The notes beneath the pieces were generated by a model. That model did not search any database. It was not told the origin of the DNA and saw nothing but the letters and a program-made list of their open reading frames with translations. This document shows, piece after piece, positions 36,574-62,104 of a stretch of DNA of 64,000 nt. The stretch is from the NCBI RefSeq assembly GCF_050875635.1, contig NZ_JBPAOH010000006.1, positions 49,729 through 113,728 of the forward strand, read 5' to 3'. The translations under genes were made by a program, and so were the position numbers. The stretch's first letter is position 1. Every line of letters starts with the position of its first letter. The stretch comes from Tolypothrix sp. VBCCA 56010. GTDB lineage: Bacteria > Cyanobacteriota > Cyanobacteriia > Cyanobacteriales > Nostocaceae.

Positions 36574-38331
36574 TTGAAGGGTATTTTGAGTTTTTTACAA
36601 GAACGTTACCGTTTACTTAAGTTGATAAGTCAAGGGGAATTTTACAAGGTTTTTCTTGCCGTGGATGAAAGTCGATTTCCTGTAGTTCGTTGTGTGGTTG
36701 AAGAATTCTCGCTGCAAATTGTCGGTTTTGAGCGAAGAAGGCAACTTTTAGAAGAAATTGGTAAGCATCCGCAAATTCCCGCAATTATAGCATATTTTCA
36801 GCAGGAAGGGTATTTTTATTTGGTACAGGAGTTTATTGAGGGTAGCAATTTAGCTGAGGTGCTTGAGGATGAGGGTGTTTTTAGTGAAAGTCAGATTTGG
36901 CAACTTTTAGAAAATTTGTTGCCTGTTCTCAAGTTTATTAGCGATCGCCATATCATTCACGGCAATATTAAACCCGAAAATATCATCCGCACAAAAGCGG
37001 GGGATTTGGTTTTAGTCAATTTTGCTACAGCTAAATTTGTGCCGAAAATCGACTTTTTTACAGAGCATGGCAATATCGGCAGTCCAGAGTATGCGGCTCC
37101 TGAGCAAATTAAGGGTAAATGCGTGTTTGCAAGTGACCTTTATAGCTTAGGTGTAACTTGCATTTACTTGCTTACGCATATTCCGCCGTTTGATTTATTT
37201 GATGTCGCTAATAATTGCTGGGCTTGGCGAGATTATCTTACCACCAAAGTAAGCGATCGCTTGGCGAAAATCCTTGACAAGTTGCTGTCCAACGCTGTTA
37301 ACCGTCGCTTTCAAAATGCTGACGAAGTTATGGAAGCAATGGGTATTAAATCCCCACTCGAAAATCTCCAATCCAAAATCTCCAATCCAAAATCCAAAAT
37401 CCAAAATCCTCCGTGGCAATGTTTGCACACTTTGACTGGATATGATGTATTAAGTAATGTAAATTCAATTGCGATTAGCCCTGATGGTAATATTTTGGCT
37501 AGTGGCAATGATGACAAAAGCATTATATTCTGGGATTTAAATACATTTGAAGCGATCGCCAATCTTGGGGGACATTCCCAAGCAGTAACATCAGTTGCTT
37601 TCAATTACGATGGAAAGCTTTTGGCGACAGGTAGCGATGATAAAACTATCAAAATTTGGGATGTTCGCAACTTCCAAGAGATTTTCACGTTAAGAGGACA
37701 TTCCCACGCTGTTAAATCAGTTGCCTTTAGCCCAGATGGAAAGCTGCTAGCTAGTGGTAGCTGGGATAAAACAGTCAAAATCTGGGATGTTTATTCTGGC
37801 GAAGAAATTTGCACTTTGACTGGACATAAATTACAGATCGGTGCAGTTGCGTTTAGTCCGCAATCAAAGCTTTTGGCAAGTGCTAGTTTTGACAGAACTA
37901 TTCGCTTGTGGAAGTTGTCTGCTGAATTGCAAAATGAATTGAAAAACCGCCCTTATCAAACACTTATAGGTCATGCAAGAGCGGTTTTAACAGTCGCTTT
38001 CAGTCCGGATGGTCAAATTTTGGCGACGGGTAGCGATGATAACACTATTAAATTGTGGGAGGTGAACACTGGTAAGTTAATTCGTACACTTTCCAGTCAT
38101 TCCTGGTCGGTGGTGACACTAGCTTTCAGTGCCGATGGGGAAACATTGATTAGTGGAAGTTGGGACAAGACGATTAAGCTTTCTGGGGTAAACACAACAG
38201 CAGAAATTGCTACTTTATCTGGTCATGTAGACTCAGTGTTTACCGTTGCTGTCAGCCCTGTTGCACTGATTGCTAGTGGCAGCAGGGACAAGACAATCAA
38301 ACTTTGGCAGCTTGTATCGCAATCAACTTAA
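36574..38331 (+). CDS. Ser/Thr protein kinase fused to a WD40 repeat domain
   Basis: 585 aa. It has Hanks kinase motifs (HGNIKPENII, DLYSLG) followed by multiple WD repeats (GHS...WD). Confidence 0.85.
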   Translation: MKGILSFLQERYRLLKLISQGEFYKVFLAVDESRFPVVRCVVEEFSLQIVGFERRRQLLEEIGKHPQIPAIIAYFQQEGYFYLVQEFIEGSNLAEVLEDEGVFSESQIWQLLENLLPVLKFISDRHIIHGNIKPENIIRTKAGDLVLVNFATAKFVPKIDFFTEHGNIGSPEYAAPEQIKGKCVFASDLYSLGVTCIYLLTHIPPFDLFDVANNCWAWRDYLTTKVSDRLAKILDKLLSNAVNRRFQNADEVMEAMGIKSPLENLQSKISNPKSKIQNPPWQCLHTLTGYDVLSNVNSIAISPDGNILASGNDDKSIIFWDLNTFEAIANLGGHSQAVTSVAFNYDGKLLATGSDDKTIKIWDVRNFQEIFTLRGHSHAVKSVAFSPDGKLLASGSWDKTVKIWDVYSGEEICTLTGHKLQIGAVAFSPQSKLLASASFDRTIRLWKLSAELQNELKNRPYQTLIGHARAVLTVAFSPDGQILATGSDDNTIKLWEVNTGKLIRTLSSHSWSVVTLAFSADGETLISGSWDKTIKLSGVNTTAEIATLSGHVDSVFTVAVSPVALIASGSRDKTIKLWQLVSQST

Positions 38332-51821: not shown

Positions 51822-51894
51822 GGGGGTATAGCTCAGTTGGTAGAGCGCTGCAATGGCATTGCAGAGGTCAGCGGTTCGAACCCGCTTACCTCCA
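51822..51894 (+). tRNA. tRNA-Ala (anticodon GGC)
   Basis: Manually folded cloverleaf. The acceptor stem GGGGGUA/UACCUCC includes the G3:U70 Ala identity pair. The D-arm is GCUC-AGUUGGUA-GAGC, the anticodon stem-loop is CUGCA-AUGGCAU-UGCAG, and the T-arm is AGCGG-TTCGAAC-CCGCT. CCA is not encoded. Confidence 0.9.
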
Positions 51895-51967
51895 TGAACC
51901 TCACACCCTATGTCTCTGGTTTTTATTAACAGAGAGGGTAAGGAAATTCTACAAAAATCACATATAT

Positions 51968-51997
51968 TATAGAGACGTTCCGACGGAACGTCTCTAT
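51968..51997. repeat. Palindrome TATAGAGACGTTCC-GACG-GAACGTCTCTATA; the second copy of the element at 36414
   Basis: Perfect inverted arms, about 70 bp downstream of the tRNA. Confidence 0.5.
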
Positions 51998-52110
51998 AAT
52001 ATGCATCAATGATGTAAGCGATCGCTTTTACTGATGTTGTTTTTTGTTAATTAGGAATAAGTGCAAAAAACAAGATTCCCGACTTGTTGAATAAGTCAGG
52101 AATCTGACTG

Positions 52111-52608
52111 CTACCTACATCCTAAAGACTCGCGAGTTTTTACACCAGTCTTAGAATTTACACCACTTGCTTGAGCGCAGAGTTTTTTCACTTGAATACC
52201 ATCAAGAATAGTATTGGTGAAGTCAGCACCGGTAATGTCAACGTCACTAAAAGTAGAACGCAACATCATTGCATCTGTCAAAATCGCATCACTTAAATCA
52301 GCACCTTTGAAGTCTACTAGATAAGCTATTCCTTCACTAAAATCTGCACCATGCAAATTTGCCCCTTGCAATACCGAACCATTAAAAACGCCACCGCGTA
52401 AATCAGCGTTACTAAAATTTGCTTTTTCTAGATTGACATTGGTATACTCAACCCCGATTAAACTTTGACCAGAAAAATCCTTGCCCTTGAATTCTGCATC
52501 ACCAACAGAACGGGTGATACTAGAAGAACTTGCTGCTTGTGCAGACAAGGGAAACACAAACAAAACCATAGCTAAGACAAAGCTAACTAGCAGTCGCGAA
52601 AACTTCAT
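52111..52608 (-). CDS. Secreted pentapeptide-repeat protein
   Basis: A signal peptide is followed by A(D/N)LxG-type pentapeptide repeats. Confidence 0.8.
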   Translation of the reverse strand: MKFSRLLVSFVLAMVLFVFPLSAQAASSSSITRSVGDAEFKGKDFSGQSLIGVEYTNVNLEKANFSNADLRGGVFNGSVLQGANLHGADFSEGIAYLVDFKGADLSDAILTDAMMLRSTFSDVDITGADFTNTILDGIQVKKLCAQASGVNSKTGVKTRESLGCR

Positions 52609-52707: not shown

Positions 52708-54981
52708 TTAAGGTTGATACAAATGGGCAGCGCTTGGGTTGCAAGCAAGAGGAGGAAATTGCCATTTCTTCACTTGCTGTTTAAGTTCCTCCATATCTAG
52801 ATAATCGCTAATCATAGCTTTTCTTAAAATTGAGTGAGGAATAAAGCGATCGTACTTTTGAATTTCTGGCGCTTCCGCATCAGCTAATAAATCCTCAGCA
52901 GTAATTCTTTGTTCACACAACGATACAATTTCATCGTAAAGATATCTAAATTTATCTTTACCTAATTTAATCGTCAAAAAATAAGGATTAACACCACCAA
53001 TACTTTTAATTTCTAAAGATTCCCGACACCAAGAATTAACCAATCTTTCTAAAGTGCGGTAAGCAACCGTACCCATCCAAGGAAAAATGCAACATTTATT
53101 ATTTTCTAAAAGCAGAATATTTTGCTTATCTAAGCCAGAATTTCGCGCTACTTCTCGAACTTTCTGCAAACGTTTCAGCGCATTTTTTTGCAAATAGCTA
53201 TATTCAACATCTTCTAGCAAAACCTGCCGCATTCGTTGCAAAATTCTTGTGTGGATATTTCCGCTACCACCGCGCCAAAAAATACTAGCTTTACCTTCTA
53301 CTTGCTTAACCAAAATAATTTTTTTTCTAAAATCAACTTCTAAAACTTCCCAAGCTTTTCCAGCCAAAGCGAATTGATTACCGATTGGGGGAGGCATAAT
53401 AATACTACCAATTTCCGTAGTTGCCTGCTTAACAACATATTCCTCATTGTCAGGAAAAACAGCATAAAATTGAAATTTACGTACTACCTTTTCCCCAGCC
53501 AAACCGAGAATTAACTTATTTTCTTCAGTTAGCTGAACATGGTTAATATCAATTAAATAGCGAAGCAACAGCCGAAAATCTTCGAGTGCGATCGCAGCAA
53601 AACTTGGTAAACTTAAAACCTGTTTAGCAAGCGCCGCAGGCGAAACTTCACCCGCAGCTGCTAAAATACTCATTGTCTGATGATAAAGCAAACTCAAAGG
53701 ATATTTAACAGGCTTAATCGGCTCAATCCAACGTTCCTCCAAATAAAGTTGAATAATCCCAATACACTGTAAAAGTTGCCAAGGAATTTGTTCCTCCAAA
53801 GAAGCTGACGCCGATACTTTTTCCTCAGTACAAACAAACCGCATATCAGCAGCAGCACCTCTTCTACCACTGCGTCCCAAACGCTGTAAAAAACTAGCTA
53901 CAGAAAAAGGCGATTCTAACTGAATAACCCTCTCCAAATGACCAATATCAACCCCCACCTCCAAAGTCAAAGTTGCCGCAATCACAGCCGACTTATCGAC
54001 CTCACGCATCGCATTTTCAGCCGCTTGCCGCAAACTAGCAGAAATACTACCATGATGCACATGATAAATATCCGGCAATCCCTCACTCGCAGCAAATTCT
54101 CGCAAAGAAGCAATAATAGATTCAGTTTGCCTTTTATTATTAGCAAAAATCAAACACTTACGAGACTTACTAACATTAAAAACATATTCCTCATACCCAC
54201 CTCCATCTCTCTCCCCTCTTCCCTTCGCGTCCTTTACGTCTTTGCGGTTCGTTTCTCCTAAAACCCCATCACCAACATAAAAATGTTCCAAAGCAAGCTT
54301 AATTTGCCTTTTCCCCCCCTCAATTTCCGGAGTAATCACCAACTTATCACTTCCAGAACCTAACCATTCTTCAGCCATCGAATAATCACCAAGAGTAGCC
54401 GACAAACCAACTCTTCGGGGTTGCGTTTGCGTCAAACTTTGCAAACGTGATAACTGACAAAGAATTTGACAACCGCGTTCAGAACCCATAAAAGCGTGAA
54501 CTTCATCGATTATCACAAACCGTAAATCACCGAACAAACGCATCAAATCATTATTTCTATTAATTAATAAGCTTTCTAAAGATTCCGGCGTAATTTGCAA
54601 AATACCCTTAGGATTCTTTAAAAGCTGTTTTTTCCGACTTTGCGAAACATCCCCATGCCAGTGACAAACGGGAATATCCGCTTCTTTTAGCAAATCATTA
54701 AGACGTGCAAATTGGTCATTAATTAAAGCCTTAATCGGACCAATATATAATGCGCCGATAGTTTCCGGCGGATTTTCATATAATAAAGTTAAAATCGGCA
54801 GAAACGCAGCTTCTGTTTTGCCCGAAGCTGTGCCGGCTGCAACTAGCAAATGAGCATCAGTGTCAAAAATGACTTTGCAAGCAGCAATTTGAACTGGTCG
54901 CAATTCACTCCAGTTGTGATGATAAATATATTCTTGGATAAAAGGCGCAAGTCTGGAAAAAGTATGTAAAACTTCGCTCAT
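52708..54981 (-). CDS. Lhr-like (Lhr-core) DEVH-box superfamily-2 helicase; BrxHI-like
   Basis: 757 aa. It has motif I AAGTASGKTEAAF, motif II VIIDEVH, motif III LSATLGD and motif VI QRLGRSGRRG. The N-terminus W-x-L-RPVQ is like Lhr, and the C-terminal about 300 aa form an Lhr-core-like domain. Confidence 0.8.
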   Translation of the reverse strand: MSEVLHTFSRLAPFIQEYIYHHNWSELRPVQIAACKVIFDTDAHLLVAAGTASGKTEAAFLPILTLLYENPPETIGALYIGPIKALINDQFARLNDLLKEADIPVCHWHGDVSQSRKKQLLKNPKGILQITPESLESLLINRNNDLMRLFGDLRFVIIDEVHAFMGSERGCQILCQLSRLQSLTQTQPRRVGLSATLGDYSMAEEWLGSGSDKLVITPEIEGGKRQIKLALEHFYVGDGVLGETNRKDVKDAKGRGERDGGGYEEYVFNVSKSRKCLIFANNKRQTESIIASLREFAASEGLPDIYHVHHGSISASLRQAAENAMREVDKSAVIAATLTLEVGVDIGHLERVIQLESPFSVASFLQRLGRSGRRGAAADMRFVCTEEKVSASASLEEQIPWQLLQCIGIIQLYLEERWIEPIKPVKYPLSLLYHQTMSILAAAGEVSPAALAKQVLSLPSFAAIALEDFRLLLRYLIDINHVQLTEENKLILGLAGEKVVRKFQFYAVFPDNEEYVVKQATTEIGSIIMPPPIGNQFALAGKAWEVLEVDFRKKIILVKQVEGKASIFWRGGSGNIHTRILQRMRQVLLEDVEYSYLQKNALKRLQKVREVARNSGLDKQNILLLENNKCCIFPWMGTVAYRTLERLVNSWCRESLEIKSIGGVNPYFLTIKLGKDKFRYLYDEIVSLCEQRITAEDLLADAEAPEIQKYDRFIPHSILRKAMISDYLDMEELKQQVKKWQFPPLACNPSAAHLYQP

Positions 54982-55004
54982 ATATTTATTTAATTTTCTA
55001 CAGC

Positions 55005-56327
55005 TTACAAACTAAATTCTGCTGCATCGTCATCAACATCTGTATTTTTACCCACAGCAGTTAACTGAAAATCCGAACCATGAATCAATTTACTAAAAGA
55101 AATTTCGGGATTTTGGTACAGGATATTCAACACACTAATAAAATCCCGGACAATTTCGCCCGGAGTCAATAATGCTTCTGCACCCAAACGATTGACAATT
55201 TCGTTTATAAAGTCCTTCAAATCGCTATTTGTTAAAGCCTTATTATAACCAAAATTCAGAGCGTGAATCTCAACCAAACCTTGCAAAAGCGTTAATATTT
55301 CATCTTCAGTCAACGGATTTAGCCGCATCACCGGTCCCAAATATTCTTGAACACCAGCTTGAACAAAACGGCTTTCTTTAGTGCGTCTTCGCCAAGCTGG
55401 GTCGGCAAAAAGTCCGCGATTTGGGTCTTCTAAAAATTTTGTAGTTCCACCGATCACAATACCAAGATGTTCTGCTTTGCATTGCATGGTATCGTTAAAC
55501 ATTGCTAAAAGTCTGTTATAGTTCTTTTCGCGAGTAACTGTAGTGGATATTTGGTATATATGCACAACTTCATCAAGCAAAACTAAAAGTCCTTTATAGC
55601 CAATTTCCGCCACAAATTTAGCGATTAACTTAATATAGTCATACCAACTATCATCATCAATAATTACGCGCACTCCCAAAGCAGCTTTTGCTTCAGTTTT
55701 GGTGTTAAATTCGCCTCGCAACCACCGCAATGCAGCATTTTTCAAATCATCATCATCAAGCCTGTAACCGCGCCAATAAGCAACAATAACGCTACCAAAA
55801 TCAAAGCCGTGAACTAAGTCCTCAATATACTGAACTACTTCTCTAATTTTCGTTTCAACTTTATCATCAAAACCTTCATCATTAGGACGTATTCCGCTAT
55901 CTTTAGCTACTTCTTGTTGAATTTTATTAATCCAACCTTCTAAAATTGAGACTAAAGCACCACCATCCGGACGAGTTTTTGTCGCCAGACGGCTCATTAA
56001 TTCTCGATAAGTTGCCAAACCTTCGTTGTTTGTTCCTGCAAGTCTACGTTCGGAAGATAAATCAGCATCAGCTACTACAAAATTTTGCTCCATAGCACGG
56101 TTGCGAATCATTTGTAGGATGAAGCTTTTACCGGAACCGTAGTTACCAATTATAAAGCGAAATGCGGCTACACCTTCTCCAATATCGTCGAGATTTTGTA
56201 ATAGGCTTTTTAATTCTTTTTCTCGACCTACTGCTATATGTTCCAGTCCAAATCTTGGTACTACTCCCGCACTCAAAGAGTTGATTAAAGCAGTAGATAT
56301 TTTTTTGGAGATTTTAAGTTTTGCCAT
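55005..56327 (-). CDS. P-loop NTPase resembling BREX BrxD (DUF2791-like)
   Basis: 440 aa with Walker A (IIGNYGSGKSFIL) and Walker B (LLVLLDEVVH). Its size and its tight 23-bp coupling to an Lhr-like helicase match the brxD-brxHI pair. The family assignment is from memory. Confidence 0.55.
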   Translation of the reverse strand: MAKLKISKKISTALINSLSAGVVPRFGLEHIAVGREKELKSLLQNLDDIGEGVAAFRFIIGNYGSGKSFILQMIRNRAMEQNFVVADADLSSERRLAGTNNEGLATYRELMSRLATKTRPDGGALVSILEGWINKIQQEVAKDSGIRPNDEGFDDKVETKIREVVQYIEDLVHGFDFGSVIVAYWRGYRLDDDDLKNAALRWLRGEFNTKTEAKAALGVRVIIDDDSWYDYIKLIAKFVAEIGYKGLLVLLDEVVHIYQISTTVTREKNYNRLLAMFNDTMQCKAEHLGIVIGGTTKFLEDPNRGLFADPAWRRRTKESRFVQAGVQEYLGPVMRLNPLTEDEILTLLQGLVEIHALNFGYNKALTNSDLKDFINEIVNRLGAEALLTPGEIVRDFISVLNILYQNPEISFSKLIHGSDFQLTAVGKNTDVDDDAAEFSL

Positions 56328-56538
56328 CTACTTCACCTCATTTTATTTTTTAGCGGTTCTCAGCCGATTCAAGTACATATATTTGTTTATGTGTAGTTCA
56401 TTAATTTTTTGATGTATTGCACCCAATTTTAAACCGCTATAAACTCACAGGCACGCTGCCAGTAGGTAATATGTAATTGTACGATGGCAATAAGTAAGCC
56501 GGCGCTAATATTTCAACCTATGTTAAGAAATTTTAATC

Positions 56539-56651
56539 TAGGGTGCGTTGCGCGACAACATACGTTGAATTTAATATGGTGCGTTGCGCTGCGCGACAAC
56601 ATACGTTGAATTTAATATGGTGCGTTGCGCTGCGCGACAACACACCCTACG
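56539..56651. repeat. MITE-like element (termini TAGGGTGCGTT...ACACCCTACG) containing about 2.5 tandem copies of a 37-41-bp unit (GGTGCGTTGCGCTGCGCGACAACATACGTTGAATTTAATAT)
   Basis: Read directly from the sequence. It sits in the 350-bp gap between the BrxD-like and coiled-coil genes. Confidence 0.6.
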
Positions 56652-56677
56652 AAGCCGACTTATTTAATAAATTAATT

Positions 56678-57970
56678 TTATGAGGGTTGTCTAGTCGTTA
56701 ATTCATACATTGCAATCAATTTTTTGACGTTTGTTATATGCTCTTGATAAATTTCTGGAGTTTCCAAGTTTGGATTTATTATTAATTCTTCAATTGTATC
56801 ATTAGCGTGTTCATTTATAGAATCAATTAACAAATTTGGCATAGTAATATTTGTTTCGGCAATGTGTTTAATAGCAGCTTTGGGATTTTCTTGCTCTACT
56901 ATGGCTTTTAATACTTGTATTTCATAAGCTGGTAGCTGTTCTAATAATTTAGCCCATTCTTGGGGTAAATCAGATGTATTTTCAGATATTGTTTCTAAAT
57001 CTATTAAGTCAGAAAAAGGAAATAAATCTACATCTTCTTCATGCTCGTTTTCTGGAAATAATTGCTGATTGTATGTTTCGGATTGTTGGAGTAATTCCCA
57101 TACTTGATTTTGTAATAAATCGCGTTCTTGTTGCAATAATGAAATTTGCTCTTGTAAGTGATTTAATTCCTTTTTTTGTTCTGTTATTTGGGTTTGTAAT
57201 AAATTTAGGCTGGCTTCTGTATTTTCTCTTTCGGATTTTTTATTTAAAATTAATTCATTGTGCTGAGTTACCTGATTTTCTAAATCTTGCAGTTCAACTC
57301 GCAATTCGTAGAGTCTTTCTTCTAGTTGAGGTTTGAGTCTGTCTAGCAAAGTTAAATTGCTTTCAGTTTCTTGCTTTTGTTGTTGGAGCTCGCTAATTTC
57401 AGTTTGTAATTTAGTTATTTCCGCTCGCGATACGTTGGAATTTAATTCTAGACGACGTTTTTCTGCTGTGAGAGCCGAAAATGAATTATTTAGCTCGGCT
57501 TTAGTTTTGTCCAGCTTAGTAAGCTCTGTTTGTAGTAAGTTTATTTCGGCTTCTAACTGCTTTTTATGTCCGATAAAACTGCTTAATTCTCGATTTAAAC
57601 TATCTCTTTGGTTGCGGCGTTCTGATACTTGATTTTGCAGTTGATTTGACTCTGTATATAATAAGGCGCGATGCTCTTCAATTTGGTTGATTTCTCTGAC
57701 AAGACGAGATTTCAAGCCCTCAAGCTCTTTTATTCGCTTGTAGAGAGAACCTAAAACGAGCATTTCATGATTTCTGCGGATGTTATCGACAAATAATGCT
57801 GCTGCGTAACTAGCTATTACTGTAATTGCACCTGTGAGAAAGGCTTTACTAAAATCCCAAGTTGGGACGAGGCTTAGACCAAAACTCACACTAAAGGCAA
57901 CTATACCTAAAAGCAAAAATCGATTATTTCCCATTGCTGATTGCATATTGCTTGTTTTTAGTTTAGTCAA
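56678..57970 (-). CDS. Membrane-anchored coiled-coil protein (two N-terminal TM helices, about 230-aa coiled-coil, acidic C-terminal domain possibly TerB-C-like)
   Basis: 430 aa. The hydrophobic segments are FLLLGIVAFSVSFGLSLV and ITVIASYAAALFV. A long heptad-rich Q/E/L region follows. The C-terminal IDSINEHANDTIEELIIN is reminiscent of the acidic TerB-C motif, which is uncertain. Confidence 0.55.
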   Translation of the reverse strand: MTKLKTSNMQSAMGNNRFLLLGIVAFSVSFGLSLVPTWDFSKAFLTGAITVIASYAAALFVDNIRRNHEMLVLGSLYKRIKELEGLKSRLVREINQIEEHRALLYTESNQLQNQVSERRNQRDSLNRELSSFIGHKKQLEAEINLLQTELTKLDKTKAELNNSFSALTAEKRRLELNSNVSRAEITKLQTEISELQQQKQETESNLTLLDRLKPQLEERLYELRVELQDLENQVTQHNELILNKKSERENTEASLNLLQTQITEQKKELNHLQEQISLLQQERDLLQNQVWELLQQSETYNQQLFPENEHEEDVDLFPFSDLIDLETISENTSDLPQEWAKLLEQLPAYEIQVLKAIVEQENPKAAIKHIAETNITMPNLLIDSINEHANDTIEELIINPNLETPEIYQEHITNVKKLIAMYELTTRQPS

Positions 57971-58063
57971 TTTTTCAGAATAGGTATTTCTGGGGAAGGG
58001 GAAAGGAGAAAGGGGAAGAATAAATTTTAATGCCTCCTACTGTACGCTGTTTATGTAAGCTAC

Positions 58064-59398
58064 TTATGTTTGGTTTTTTGAAGCCGAAAGTGCCAAATCT
58101 GCTTTCAAAAAATCAACAAACTGTCGTGCTGTTCTTCCAGATCGACCGTTGTGACGAGTTGCCCATTGCAAAGCTTGATATTCTAAATCTTCTGAGTCAA
58201 TGTTAATTGCTGCTTGTGTGGCTAAATGTCGGACAATGTTTAAATAAGTTTTCTGATCGGCAGGCTCGAAGGTTAAGGTTAGACCAAAGCGATCGCTAAA
58301 CGAAAGCTTCTCCTGCATCGTATCCCAAGCATGAATTTCATCATTATCTTTAGGTGCAGGTCTATCAGCAAAAAACTCGCGAATTAAGTGCCGACGATTA
58401 GAAGTAGCATACACGACTACGTTTTGCGATCGCGCAGTTAAATTCCCCTCTAATACTACTTTCAGCGCTTTAAAAGCGTCGTCATCTTCCTCAAAAGAAA
58501 GGTCATCGACAAAAATAATAAATTTATGTGGCACAGAGCGCAACTGTTCCACAATTTGTGGTAGGTGTTTCAAATCTGATTTTGCTACTTCCAGCAAGCG
58601 CAGGTGATGCTTGCTGTACTCATTCAACAAAGCTTTCACCAAAGAGGATTTCCCCGAACCGCGACTACCGTAAAGTAATACGTGCAGCGCTACCTCTCCT
58701 GCTAGCAAAAATTCTGTATTTTTTAATAAAGCGTCTCGCTGAGACTCATAACCCACTAATTCGCTTAACTTTACCGGATCGGCATATTTGATGCCAATAA
58801 ATTGTCCGTCGCAATAGCGCAATGCACTATATTCTGCAAATAAACCCGTACCAAATTGCCGATAATAAGCAGCTACATCTTCTACTGCATCAGCCCAATC
58901 TTCGATGTGGTGCAGTTTCTCTATTAGCAGTGATTCGTTCGTTTCTTCCAAAAGAGTAAGTTCCTCGTCATACCACACTACTGGTGAAACAGCTAGACCT
59001 GCCACAGCTTGTACCCATTCGCTCAAAAACGCGCTACTACATTCATAAAGACTTTGCAACGCTTGTAAATCATGCTGAGTCGCTGCAATTAAAGCTGAAG
59101 GCAAATTTTCAAATTCTCGCTGCCCTGCAAGCTGAGAAAATGGATTCTCATCTCTGAGAATTTGCGTAATTAAATAGTCCTCCCAGTTTTGATTTCTAGC
59201 AGCCAAGCACTTAAAGTAGTTGCCGTAAGCTTGAAGACAACTGCGTGCATCCGCTTCGGCATATCGTATACTTTGCAACAATTCCATAAATGCTCTACTG
59301 ACTTCGCCTTGGAGGACGGATTGGTAGATTAATAAAGATGCTGCTTGACGCTGGAGGAACTGAACTTTTGTCTGGAACGAATTACTTGCCGTGGACAT
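58064..59398 (-). CDS. AAA-type ATPase of the DUF815 (COG2607) family with an about 190-aa N-terminal extension
   Basis: 444 aa with Walker A (LLYGSRGSGKSSLVKAL) and Walker B (FIIFVDDLSFEE). The core of about 250 aa is typical of DUF815. Confidence 0.65.
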   Translation of the reverse strand: MSTASNSFQTKVQFLQRQAASLLIYQSVLQGEVSRAFMELLQSIRYAEADARSCLQAYGNYFKCLAARNQNWEDYLITQILRDENPFSQLAGQREFENLPSALIAATQHDLQALQSLYECSSAFLSEWVQAVAGLAVSPVVWYDEELTLLEETNESLLIEKLHHIEDWADAVEDVAAYYRQFGTGLFAEYSALRYCDGQFIGIKYADPVKLSELVGYESQRDALLKNTEFLLAGEVALHVLLYGSRGSGKSSLVKALLNEYSKHHLRLLEVAKSDLKHLPQIVEQLRSVPHKFIIFVDDLSFEEDDDAFKALKVVLEGNLTARSQNVVVYATSNRRHLIREFFADRPAPKDNDEIHAWDTMQEKLSFSDRFGLTLTFEPADQKTYLNIVRHLATQAAINIDSEDLEYQALQWATRHNGRSGRTARQFVDFLKADLALSASKNQT

Positions 59399-59501: not shown

Positions 59502-59831
59502 ATGAATTTAGGTATTATTGCTTCTCTTGGCTACGGCTTTTTAGCGATTGCCGGTGGCATCATTGGTTACATTTTTTCTACTAGCAATGTTTCGCTCCTC
59601 AGTGGCTGCATTAGTGGTGTATTATTACTTTTTGCCGCTTACCTCCAATTTCAAGGTATAATCTGGGGTTTGATTTTAGCAGCTTTAGTCACTGCTGTTT
59701 TAGTAGTTGTTTTTGCATTGCGACTGGCTAAAACACGCAAGTTTATGCCGGCGGGATTGATGCTGTTTTTCGGTGTGCTGACGTTGGCGGTGATAGTGAA
59801 TCAACTTATGGCATCAATAATAAGCCAGTAG
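59502..59831 (+). CDS. TMEM14-family small membrane protein
   Basis: 109 aa with four predicted TM helices and a glycine-rich first helix (GYGFLAIAGGIIGY). Confidence 0.55.
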   Translation: MNLGIIASLGYGFLAIAGGIIGYIFSTSNVSLLSGCISGVLLLFAAYLQFQGIIWGLILAALVTAVLVVVFALRLAKTRKFMPAGLMLFFGVLTLAVIVNQLMASIISQ

Positions 59832-60868: not shown

Positions 60869-62104
60869 ATGGTAGTTTCACTGTCTTCTCATAACGTTAT
60901 CCAGTATCTGCGTTCCTCAGGTCTGTGTAGCTCAGAAGATGGCGCATCCTCTAATTCTGAGTTACCTGAAAGTAAGAAAAACTTAAATTTACTGGTTACT
61001 CTGGCAGATAATCGCAAACTGCTAGTTAAACAAAAACGTAGCATTGACCTTTGGGATGGAAAAGAGCAATTTTTCAATGAGTGGCTGTTTGACCAATTGC
61101 TTGAGCAATTTCCAGTCATTGGTAACATCGGAGCGATCGCCTCATCAGTACTGCACTTCGATGAAGAAAACTCGATCCTGATCCGTAACTACTTAAGTGA
61201 ATATCAGGAACTAGGGAATTATTATCAACAAAACGATATTTTCCCGGAAGCGATCGCCAGTACGATTGGTGACACCTTAGGAGCGCTGCATCGTGCTACC
61301 TTCAACCGTCGCGAGTATCGCGATTTTATGGCAACTGCTCCCGCAGGACAGTTTCGCTATCACTTCAACAATCCAGCACAAGGAATCGAGTCAATTGCAC
61401 CTGAGATTTTTGGCATGGTTCCCACTCCTGCGCTGAAATTTTATGCTTACTACCAGGGTCACGACAATTTAGAATCAGCAATTGGAGACTTAGCAAACGA
61501 TTGGCAACCTTGCTGCTTGACTCATAACGACCTGAAATTAGACAACATTTTGATCCATTCCAGGTGGGAACATTTAGATAATGCGATCGTCCGTCTGATT
61601 GACTGGGAAGCATGTGCCTGGGGTGATCCAGCCTTTGATTTAGGAACTTTACTGGCAAGCTATTTAAAAATTTGGCTAGACAGCCTGGTGGTAGATCCCA
61701 CCATCGAATTAGAAGAATCTTTGCAATTAGCGGTGACACCATTAGAGACTCTTCAACCTTCAATGCTTGCCCTGACTCAAGCTTATCTCAAAGCCTTCCC
61801 CAACATTTTAGAGTACCGTAATGATTTTCTCTTGCGTGTTATTCAGTTTGCGGGTTTGGCACTGATGCATCAAATTGAGGCAGCGATTAAGTACGATAAA
61901 TACTTTGATAATATCAGCATTTCAATGCTTCAATTCGCCAAAAATTTACTCACCATGCCACAGCTTGCTGTGCTAACTGTTTTCGGTATTTCTGAATCGG
62001 AAATACTCAAACCCGTTACCAAATTAGAAAAGTTGCCTCAACCAGAAAGCAAGCAGAATTTAGTTCCTCTTTATTACCCAAAAACTCGTTTGCGTGGATG
62101 TTAA
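60869..62104 (+). CDS. Aminoglycoside phosphotransferase (APH)/choline-kinase-fold protein kinase-like enzyme
   Basis: It has the Brenner catalytic motif LTHNDLKLDNILI and the DWE metal-binding motif (RLIDWEACAWGDPAFDLG). Confidence 0.75.
   Translation: MVVSLSSHNVIQYLRSSGLCSSEDGASSNSELPESKKNLNLLVTLADNRKLLVKQKRSIDLWDGKEQFFNEWLFDQLLEQFPVIGNIGAIASSVLHFDEENSILIRNYLSEYQELGNYYQQNDIFPEAIASTIGDTLGALHRATFNRREYRDFMATAPAGQFRYHFNNPAQGIESIAPEIFGMVPTPALKFYAYYQGHDNLESAIGDLANDWQPCCLTHNDLKLDNILIHSRWEHLDNAIVRLIDWEACAWGDPAFDLGTLLASYLKIWLDSLVVDPTIELEESLQLAVTPLETLQPSMLALTQAYLKAFPNILEYRNDFLLRVIQFAGLALMHQIEAAIKYDKYFDNISISMLQFAKNLLTMPQLAVLTVFGISESEILKPVTKLEKLPQPESKQNLVPLYYPKTRLRGC

Follow-up and report, generated by a model that had tools for sequence, protein, structure and literature searches.

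Within the 64,000-nucleotide stretch of Tolypothrix sp. VBCCA 56010 DNA analysed here (contig NZ_JBPAOH010000006.1; hereafter the window), positions 52708-59398 hold four co-oriented open reading frames (ORFs) on the minus strand, which an earlier note on this DNA had taken for a candidate undescribed defence system and which we read as a probable variant of the anti-phage system Shango preceded by a DUF815-family ATPase. Taken in order, they code for a DUF815-family AAA+ ATPase (gene 1; 58064..59398, 444 aa), a SngA-like protein that we call SngA' (gene 2; 56678..57970, 430 aa, with a TTG start), a P-loop ATPase of the DUF2791 / BrxC_BrxD family assigned to SngB (gene 3; 55005..56327, 440 aa) and an Lhr-core-like superfamily 2 (SF2) DEVH helicase assigned to SngC (gene 4; 52708..54981, 757 aa), with intergenic gaps of 93, 350 and 23 bp in turn. 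The ORF list of the window bears out the sizes, gaps and motifs recorded in the earlier note (GNYGSGKSF, DEVH, GSRGSGKS and INEHANDTIEELIIN are all present in the translations of the four ORFs), and profile searches confirmed each of its domain calls: DUF815, a TerB-C-like protein, BrxD/DUF2791 and an Lhr-like helicase. When compared with their orthologues, the four genes have ratios of nonsynonymous to synonymous substitution rates (dN/dS) of 0.07-0.31, and this purifying selection indicates that they are real genes.

Genes 3 and 4 match the ATPase and the helicase of Shango, a three-gene system (SngA-SngB-SngC) reportedly described by Millman et al. in 2022 and by Johnson et al. in 2023. The PADLOC model of SngB aligns with gene 3 end to end (positions 1-440 against 1-439 of 439; 591 bits, E 4.3e-178), and that of SngC covers gene 4 over its full length as well (positions 7-738 against 5-718 of 720; 824 bits, E 3.8e-248). 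The SngB protein, which is the most constrained of the four (dN/dS 0.07-0.10), also matches PF10923 (BrxC_BrxD, DUF2791) in Pfam at 557 bits and has the Walker A motif GNYGSGKS and the Walker B motif LLVLLDE, while SngC contains DEAD, Helicase_C and weak WH_Lhr domains in Pfam together with the helicase motifs I (GTASGKT), II (DEVH) and VI (QRLGRSGRR). Its best relatives in the PDB are the Lhr structures 5v9x and 7lhl, and its orthologues are 74-94% identical across Nostocales. The likeness to both Shango and the BrxD/BrxHI pair of BREX that had been seen earlier is real, in that PADLOC models of both match, and the two systems have in common the same two superfamilies, a PF10923 ATPase and an Lhr-like SF2 helicase. 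BrxD and BrxHI, however, reach only 175 and 436 bits, 3.4-fold and 1.9-fold below SngB and SngC respectively, and the NCBIfam BrxD model scores 177 bits, below its cut-off of 350. Judged by these profile scores, genes 3 and 4 are members of the SngB and SngC families and not of BrxD and BrxHI, as had been proposed. The annotated ORFs of the window include no BREX methyltransferase and no PglZ, as previously noted, nor do they include PglX, BrxA, BrxB or BrxC; on this ground and on that of the scores, a BREX remnant was rejected. Because the core of the locus is thus a known system, the claim that the system was undescribed fails. As in Shango, no nuclease effector is recognisable at the locus, nor is any other effector. 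Homologues of SngB on plasmids all fall short of 60% identity, the best being from Paenibacillus (54.5%).

Gene 2 encodes a protein that resembles canonical SngA at its C-terminal end. Pfam identifies a TerB_C domain (PF15615; 67 bits, cut-off 26.3) and gives no TerB_N or TerB match at E<=0.01; the PADLOC SngA model aligns (E 5e-19) over model positions 230-527 of 528 only, its C-terminal 56%, and an hhalign comparison with canonical SngA (97.8% probability, E 9e-13) covers only the last 82 residues. By this comparison, SngA' and canonical SngA are homologous only via the TerB-C core, implying that the N-terminal TerB-N/TerB half has been replaced. The earlier suggestion that the TerB-like partner had been swapped therefore holds for TerB-N and TerB and fails for TerB-C, which has been kept. 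Hydropathy places two hydrophobic segments at residues ~17-36 and 43-62, both flanked by positive charges, from which an N-in/C-in hairpin (residues ~17-62) is predicted. Within the following 238 residues (63-300), 67% are E, Q, L, K, R or N, only four are proline or glycine, and the autocorrelation of hydrophobicity has its maxima at lags 7 and 14, a heptad signal. Hydropathy and heptad signal together uphold the two transmembrane (TM) helices and the coiled coil initially proposed for this protein. SngA' is accordingly predicted from its sequence to comprise a TM hairpin, a coiled coil of ~240 aa (residues 63-300), an acidic linker and a TerB-C core (residues 334-426). This core was modelled by AlphaFold 2 (AF2) with a predicted local distance difference test score (pLDDT) above 90. 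In a Foldseek search the model came closest to LysR/MarR winged-helix DNA-binding domains, though without significance (E 0.08-0.5). The core has a net charge of -7, and its acidity, together with the lack of significance of the winged-helix matches, favours a role in protein-protein contacts over DNA binding. SngA' has no real homologue on plasmids, the match found being to the coiled coil only. A 46.8-kb plasmid of Fremyella diplosiphon (plasmid08, AP018241.1; locus L092) encodes an 855-aa coiled-coil protein that is 29% identical to residues 8-262 of SngA' and is flanked by genes for a phage integrase and a SNF2 protein and by a very large gene resembling DEAD/DEAH helicases. This element, also present in Tolypothrix PCC 7712 and 7601, may be a separate mobile module of helicase and coiled-coil protein.

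The second AAA ATPase that had been proposed for the cluster is the product of gene 1, which matches DUF815 (PF05673) in Pfam with an E-value of 2.4e-95 and 318.9 bits against a cut-off of 23.8. Since the domain is limited to residues 195-433, an N-terminal helical extension of ~190 aa (residues 1-190) falls outside it, as had been stated. The protein has a Walker A motif, GSRGSGKS (residues 244-251), and a Walker B motif, FIIFVDD. DUF815 proteins of Acinetobacter, Neisseria, Burkholderia and Azospirillum are 40-50% identical to gene 1 in the AAA+ core; such non-cyanobacterial homologues align to residues ~180-435 only, and the N-terminal 190-aa domain was found in cyanobacteria only. Across cyanobacterial orders the protein is 60-67% identical, with the N-terminal part conserved too and blocks of the AAA core near-identical, and the gene has a dN/dS of 0.11-0.12. 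The possibility that the extension is a cryptic TerB-N domain was rejected (hhalign probability 0.2%). An AF2 model built on a shallow Nostocales alignment had a mean pLDDT of 51.6, too poor for a fold search, and sequence and profile searches of the DUF815 protein and SngB against the PDB returned nothing or generic P-loop matches only. Our searches turned up no solved structure or characterised function for the DUF815 family, and no paper in the literature searched ties it to Shango, TerB-C or cyanobacteria, although Anantharaman et al. 2012, said to be the first description of TerB-N/TerB-C gene neighbourhoods, may bear on this. The Synechocystis protein slr0930 is a 49-kDa (~430-aa) DUF815 protein that co-purified with an RNA-binding protein (PMC11622646).

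The extent to which these genes travel together was determined by scanning species-representative genomes with an alignment of SngB, which yielded 80 loci; linkage was counted only at loci with enough flanking sequence. SngB identity over these loci forms a gradient from 78-86% in Nostocales through 55-67% in other cyanobacteria to 47-58% in Firmicutes and others. In Nostocales, DUF815 and SngA' both lie upstream of SngB at every locus (26/26), DUF815 coming directly before SngA', and SngC lies within 3.5 kb at 6/25. The corresponding figures for other cyanobacteria are 4/9 for DUF815, 5/9 for SngA' and 6/8 for SngC, and outside cyanobacteria they are 0/27, 0/27 and 29/30, with a canonical SngA bearing TerB_N at 28/29 loci (a count recorded for this last group alone). 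Compact clusters of three or all four genes were seen in Gloeocapsa, Coleofasciculus, Chroococcidiopsidaceae and one unclassified cyanobacterium, where most junctions are 4-bp overlaps or gaps of 5-63 bp, the widest being 145 bp, and where SngA' again has two N-terminal TM helices and TerB_C. All four genes are clustered compactly in L038, L039, L041 and L045, with 4-bp overlaps or gaps of 5-27 bp. The SngA' architecture with DUF815 in front is thus conserved in Nostocales, in Gloeocapsa/Chroococcidiopsidaceae, in Coleofasciculus and in one further cyanobacterial lineage. Two Nostoc genomes carry a 76%-identical SngC orthologue alone at another locus, where the downstream neighbours (a metal repressor, LptC, NYN and Met-tRNA synthetase) are common to both; the helicase is therefore retained, not lost, when detached in Nostoc. 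Pairwise divergences of the four proteins correlate across loci (r 0.84-0.96), which is consistent with their co-inheritance. At one locus, in Microseira wollei (L043, 5391-6656), an IS605 OrfB/TnpB gene (Cas12f-like TNB) takes the place of DUF815 immediately before SngA'-SngB-SngC, and similar AAA_16 genes follow SngC in L041 (7904-10030, 708 aa) and in L001 (17229-19310, 693 aa). The latter locus comes from the nearest relative of the strain studied here, represented by two assemblies (L001 and L002), both of which have this AAA_16 gene and also an inserted TPR gene, which lies in opposite orientation between SngB and SngC (12884-14512 in L001).

A scan of metagenomes with an alignment of cyanobacterial DUF815 proteins gave a complementary view, counts being taken over 57 loci with at least 2.9 kb of downstream sequence. 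SngB was found in 19 of these and a SngA'-like gene in 26. DUF815-SngA' pairs without SngB were observed in L135, L143, L149 and L152-154, with overlapping ORFs in L143 and L152, and in L125 the gene after DUF815 codes for a 1076-aa protein in which two TM helices are combined with a long coiled coil and TerB_C. In lineages without SngA', small TerB (PF05099) proteins of 137-164 aa directly follow DUF815 at nine loci (L111, L131, L140, L155, L161, L164, L166, L167 and L169); six of the nine have an N-terminal hydrophobic segment, and eight of the nine loci keep the divergent Tmemb_14 neighbour that is also present in the window. This repeated occupation of the slot after DUF815 by a Ter-family protein suggests that DUF815 and Ter proteins are functional partners and that the Shango ATPase-helicase pair was recruited to this partnership. 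Moreover, the existence of the cyanobacterial DUF815 subfamily without Sng genes, both in the metagenomes and in Synechocystis, implies that DUF815 predates the Shango-like genes and has a wider distribution. In several cyanobacterial loci, Uma2-family (putative restriction-endonuclease-like) genes adjoin DUF815 or the cluster: Pfam confirmed them in L106 and L114 (in each the ORF after DUF815), in L001 (20154-20717) and in L003 (3317-4685), and in L115, L118 and L119, where it is again the ORF after DUF815, they were assigned from similar ORF size and position only.

Set beside canonical Shango loci from Paenibacillus, E. coli and Roseovarius plasmids, where the order is A-B-C and SngA consists of TerB_N(+TerB)+TerB_C, the locus in the window has the same gene order and orientation, SngA'-SngB-SngC being co-oriented on the minus strand, and the C-terminal TerB-C domain of its first protein is homologous to the one in canonical SngA. 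It differs in that SngA' has two TM helices and ~240 aa of coiled coil instead of TerB-N and TerB, in the DUF815 AAA+ gene upstream, which is a feature of cyanobacteria only, in its vertically inherited and syntenic position (canonical loci lie in mobile islands or on plasmids), in the unlinking of the helicase in most Nostoc genomes and in its gaps of 350 and 23 bp, compared with 4-bp overlaps to 5-bp gaps in the canonical loci. The wider of these gaps (56328..56677) contains a 41-bp tandem repeat at 56544-56642 (2.4 copies, 98% identical; TRF score 191), which has a GC-rich, near-palindromic core (GTTGTCGCGCAGCGCAACGCACC) and is found at no other place in the window. In L001 nothing aligns to window positions ~56445-56665, the stretch with the repeat, and the SngA'/SngB spacer measures 95-150 bp in L001, L003 and L005 and -4 to 145 bp in other orders; this stretch, whose repeat makes up much of the 350-bp gap, probably results from a local insertion. 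An Rfam search for regulatory RNA over the whole window matched the tRNA alone, and promoter and terminator scans of the spacer gave no excess over shuffled expectation; the idea that the spacer encodes a regulatory RNA was rejected.

Protection against phages has been demonstrated only for the Shango systems of E. coli and P. aeruginosa, for which a role in membrane surveillance was proposed (bioRxiv 10.1101/2022.05.11.491447, 10.1101/2022.11.11.516204), and in P. aeruginosa Shango is found in a conserved chromosomal hotspot. Membrane surveillance has likewise been proposed for Ter-domain systems, namely TerB proteins, Bunzi BnzA and Dionysus DinB, and the locus resembles these in coupling a Ter-family domain to the membrane and to phage-defence partners. 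It differs from them in that the Ter element is TerB-C only, set on a coiled-coil stalk, and in that it is paired with an AAA+ protein (DUF815), an ATPase and a helicase and not with pore-forming or other effectors.

Since the cluster had been placed in an accessory island beside a tRNA gene, we also considered its chromosomal setting. A tRNA-Ala(GGC) gene (51822-51894, plus strand) is separated from the cluster by 814 bp and is so oriented that integration at its 3' end would be possible, and between the two is a gene for a 165-aa pentapeptide-repeat protein with a signal-peptide-like N-terminus (52111-52608). Neither a repeat of the 3' end of tRNA-Ala nor any flanking direct repeat was found in the window, and no integrase was seen among its annotated ORFs, the shorter ORFs of the first 47 kb not having been scanned. 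On the other side of the cluster lie genes for Tmemb_14 (59502-59831), an APH-type kinase (60869-62104), a HopA1-effector-family protein (62168-63235) and a 4HBT thioesterase (63359-63805), all of them syntenic with the cluster across Nostocales: the order 4HBT-HopA1-APH-Tmemb_14 / DUF815-SngA'-SngB-SngC of the window recurs in Cylindrospermum PCC 7417 and Scytonema HK-05 as well as in Tolypothrix-like genomes, and L001 is collinear with the window at 92-95% nucleotide identity, from the 4HBT gene up to and including the tRNA side. More than 30 named Nostocales genera have orthologues of DUF815, SngA' and SngC, at 65-98% identity. PADLOC gave no specific defence-system match for the neighbouring genes, and the remainder of the window, as judged from its larger ORFs, is typical chromosomal DNA coding for EF-G, RNase E, a radical-SAM protein, a P450 and glycosyltransferases. 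GC content is 38.4% in the cluster and 42.5% in the window as a whole, a dip due mostly to the coiled-coil gene (33.8%). Given the lack of an attachment (att) repeat, the absence of an observed integrase, the collinearity with L001 and the conservation at 26/26 Nostocales loci, an island integrated at the tRNA, whether a general genomic or a defence island, was rejected. The HopA1-family and kinase genes form a pair that is conserved in free-living cyanobacteria.

On balance, we consider it probable that Shango (SngA-SngB-SngC) is present here in a variant form that is specific to this lineage and fixed in the chromosome, with a functionally linked DUF815 AAA+ ATPase in front of it, whether it acts in defence or in a housekeeping role. 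A number of observations weigh against this. Core-genome, vertical inheritance without defence neighbours is atypical for defence systems; SngC lies off-locus in most Nostoc genomes, to which the 350-bp SngA'/SngB gap in the window has to be added; the acidity of the TerB-C core argues against direct DNA binding despite its winged-helix-like model; and we infer every one of the mechanistic steps set out below. In addition, DUF815 with the same N-terminal extension has no SngB nearby at 38 of the 57 metagenomic loci, and in the nearest relative (both L001 and L002) the DUF815 gene is frameshifted by a 1-bp insertion, which in L001 (8524-9859) falls at the boundary between the N-terminal and AAA domains, while SngA', SngB and SngC are intact. 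In view of the Sng-free DUF815 loci and slr0930, the linkage of DUF815 to Shango could be positional, a plain three-gene Shango cassette having been inserted beside a housekeeping DUF815 gene in an ancestor and the adjacency kept by descent. The absence of DUF815 from all 27 non-cyanobacterial Shango loci and the 93-bp DUF815/SngA' gap in the window, with no overlap, fit such a history, as does the frameshift. We nevertheless think it rather unlikely: the DUF815-SngA' junction is more stable than that between SngB and SngC (26/26 versus 6/25 in Nostocales), consists of overlaps or 5-27 bp in several orders and survives where SngB has gone, and the TerB proteins that hold the slot at nine loci without SngA' point to a functional DUF815-Ter partnership.

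It is also conceivable that the Shango-derived genes and DUF815 now form a conserved membrane-associated nucleic-acid or stress apparatus of filamentous cyanobacteria and their relatives, a domesticated housekeeping machine no longer used against phages, with membrane-proximal DNA/RNA processing, repair or the handling of incoming DNA as candidate roles. This idea, which overlaps with the Shango variant that we favour, draws on the synteny of a core locus across orders, on strong purifying selection and correlated divergence, on the retention of the helicase at a separate housekeeping locus in Nostoc, on the absence of mobile-element or defence neighbours, on the very high conservation of DUF815, down to near-identical core blocks between orders, and on the co-purification of slr0930 with an RNA-binding protein. 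As the primary role of the locus, however, we hold it to be somewhat doubtful, as SngB and SngC are still full-length matches to models from validated defence systems, core chromosomal defence loci exist (Shango in its P. aeruginosa hotspot being one), and the intergenic insertions, the DUF815 frameshift in the nearest relative and the fact that adjacency has been lost in several lineages are more suggestive of an accessory, dispensable function than of an essential one. By comparison, a new four-gene defence system in an accessory island at tRNA-Ala, akin to BrxD/BrxHI, as envisaged in the earlier note, now seems very improbable. The matches of genes 3 and 4 to the BrxD and BrxHI models, the nearby tRNA and the low GC of the cluster speak for it, but genes 3 and 4 fit the SngB and SngC models with far better scores and over the full length, the annotated ORFs reveal no PglZ, PglX or integrase and no att repeat is seen, the cluster is collinear with relatives on both sides and syntenic across genera, and the dip in GC is mainly that of a single gene. 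The note had itself held that a 440-aa protein unrelated to DUF2791 and a helicase conserved in synteny among relatives would tell against it; the helicase is indeed largely syntenic and conserved in this way, whereas the 440-aa protein does match DUF2791.

If the locus is a Shango variant with a linked AAA+ partner, as we favour, SngA' would dimerise via its coiled coil and be anchored in the cytoplasmic or thylakoid membrane, with the stalk and the TerB-C domain on the cytoplasmic side. TerB-C, being the only part conserved with canonical SngA, is the likeliest docking site for the SngB ATPase, which might in turn control SngC or load it onto nucleic acid near the membrane, for example foreign DNA that is entering or replicating. 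Lhr enzymes are 3'-5' translocases. DUF815 would act as the AAA+ partner of membrane-tethered Ter-domain proteins, here perhaps as a remodeller or regulator of SngA', and since no effector is recognisable, the output may be helicase-driven disruption or the recruitment of host factors. A core locus inherited vertically could provide constitutive 'core' immunity or could have been domesticated for a housekeeping task.

A broader proposal, which we put forward tentatively and at rather less than even likelihood, is that cyanobacteria have a conserved partnership between DUF815 and a membrane-tethered Ter protein, later joined by the Shango ATPase-helicase pair to give a domesticated core machine of four components. 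The ancestral arrangement would have been Tmemb_14 <- -> DUF815-TerB, and among the ancestors of Nostocales, Chroococcidiopsidales and Coleofasciculaceae a TM-coiled-coil-TerB-C protein, bringing the Shango pair with it, would have taken the place of the small TerB protein in situ. The resulting four-component machine, carried in the core genome, vertically inherited and kept across several cyanobacterial orders, would be a domesticated defence system, constitutive and possibly housekeeping, for membrane-linked nucleic-acid surveillance. If true, this would give DUF815 its first functional context.

In the literature searched we did not find the SngA' architecture, the cyanobacterial DUF815 linkage or DUF815-TerB pairs, on which Anantharaman et al. 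2012 may hold relevant observations, nor a core-genome, vertically inherited Shango with a detachable helicase. That TerB-C is the sole part of SngA retained points to it as the part through which SngA is coupled to the SngB/SngC motor, and suggests that the N-terminal half of SngA is an exchangeable localisation or sensing module, represented here by a hard-wired membrane anchor. The fixed DUF815 neighbour and the recurrent DUF815-TerB pairs offer a testable functional context for a widespread family, and the vertical inheritance of a defence-type cassette across whole cyanobacterial orders makes this a possible case of domestication. For annotation, the label Shango-like is appropriate, the locus being neither novel nor BREX.

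Other features of the window were recorded in passing. Between tRNA-Ala and the pentapeptide-repeat gene there is a perfect palindrome (tatagagacgttccgacggaacgtctctata) at 51963-52003, and past the pentapeptide gene, at 52105-52073, there is a strong hairpin resembling a terminator. Further away, at 36574-38331, is a gene for a 585-aa fusion of a Ser/Thr protein kinase to a WD40 beta-propeller, which is typical of filamentous cyanobacteria and unrelated to the cluster.

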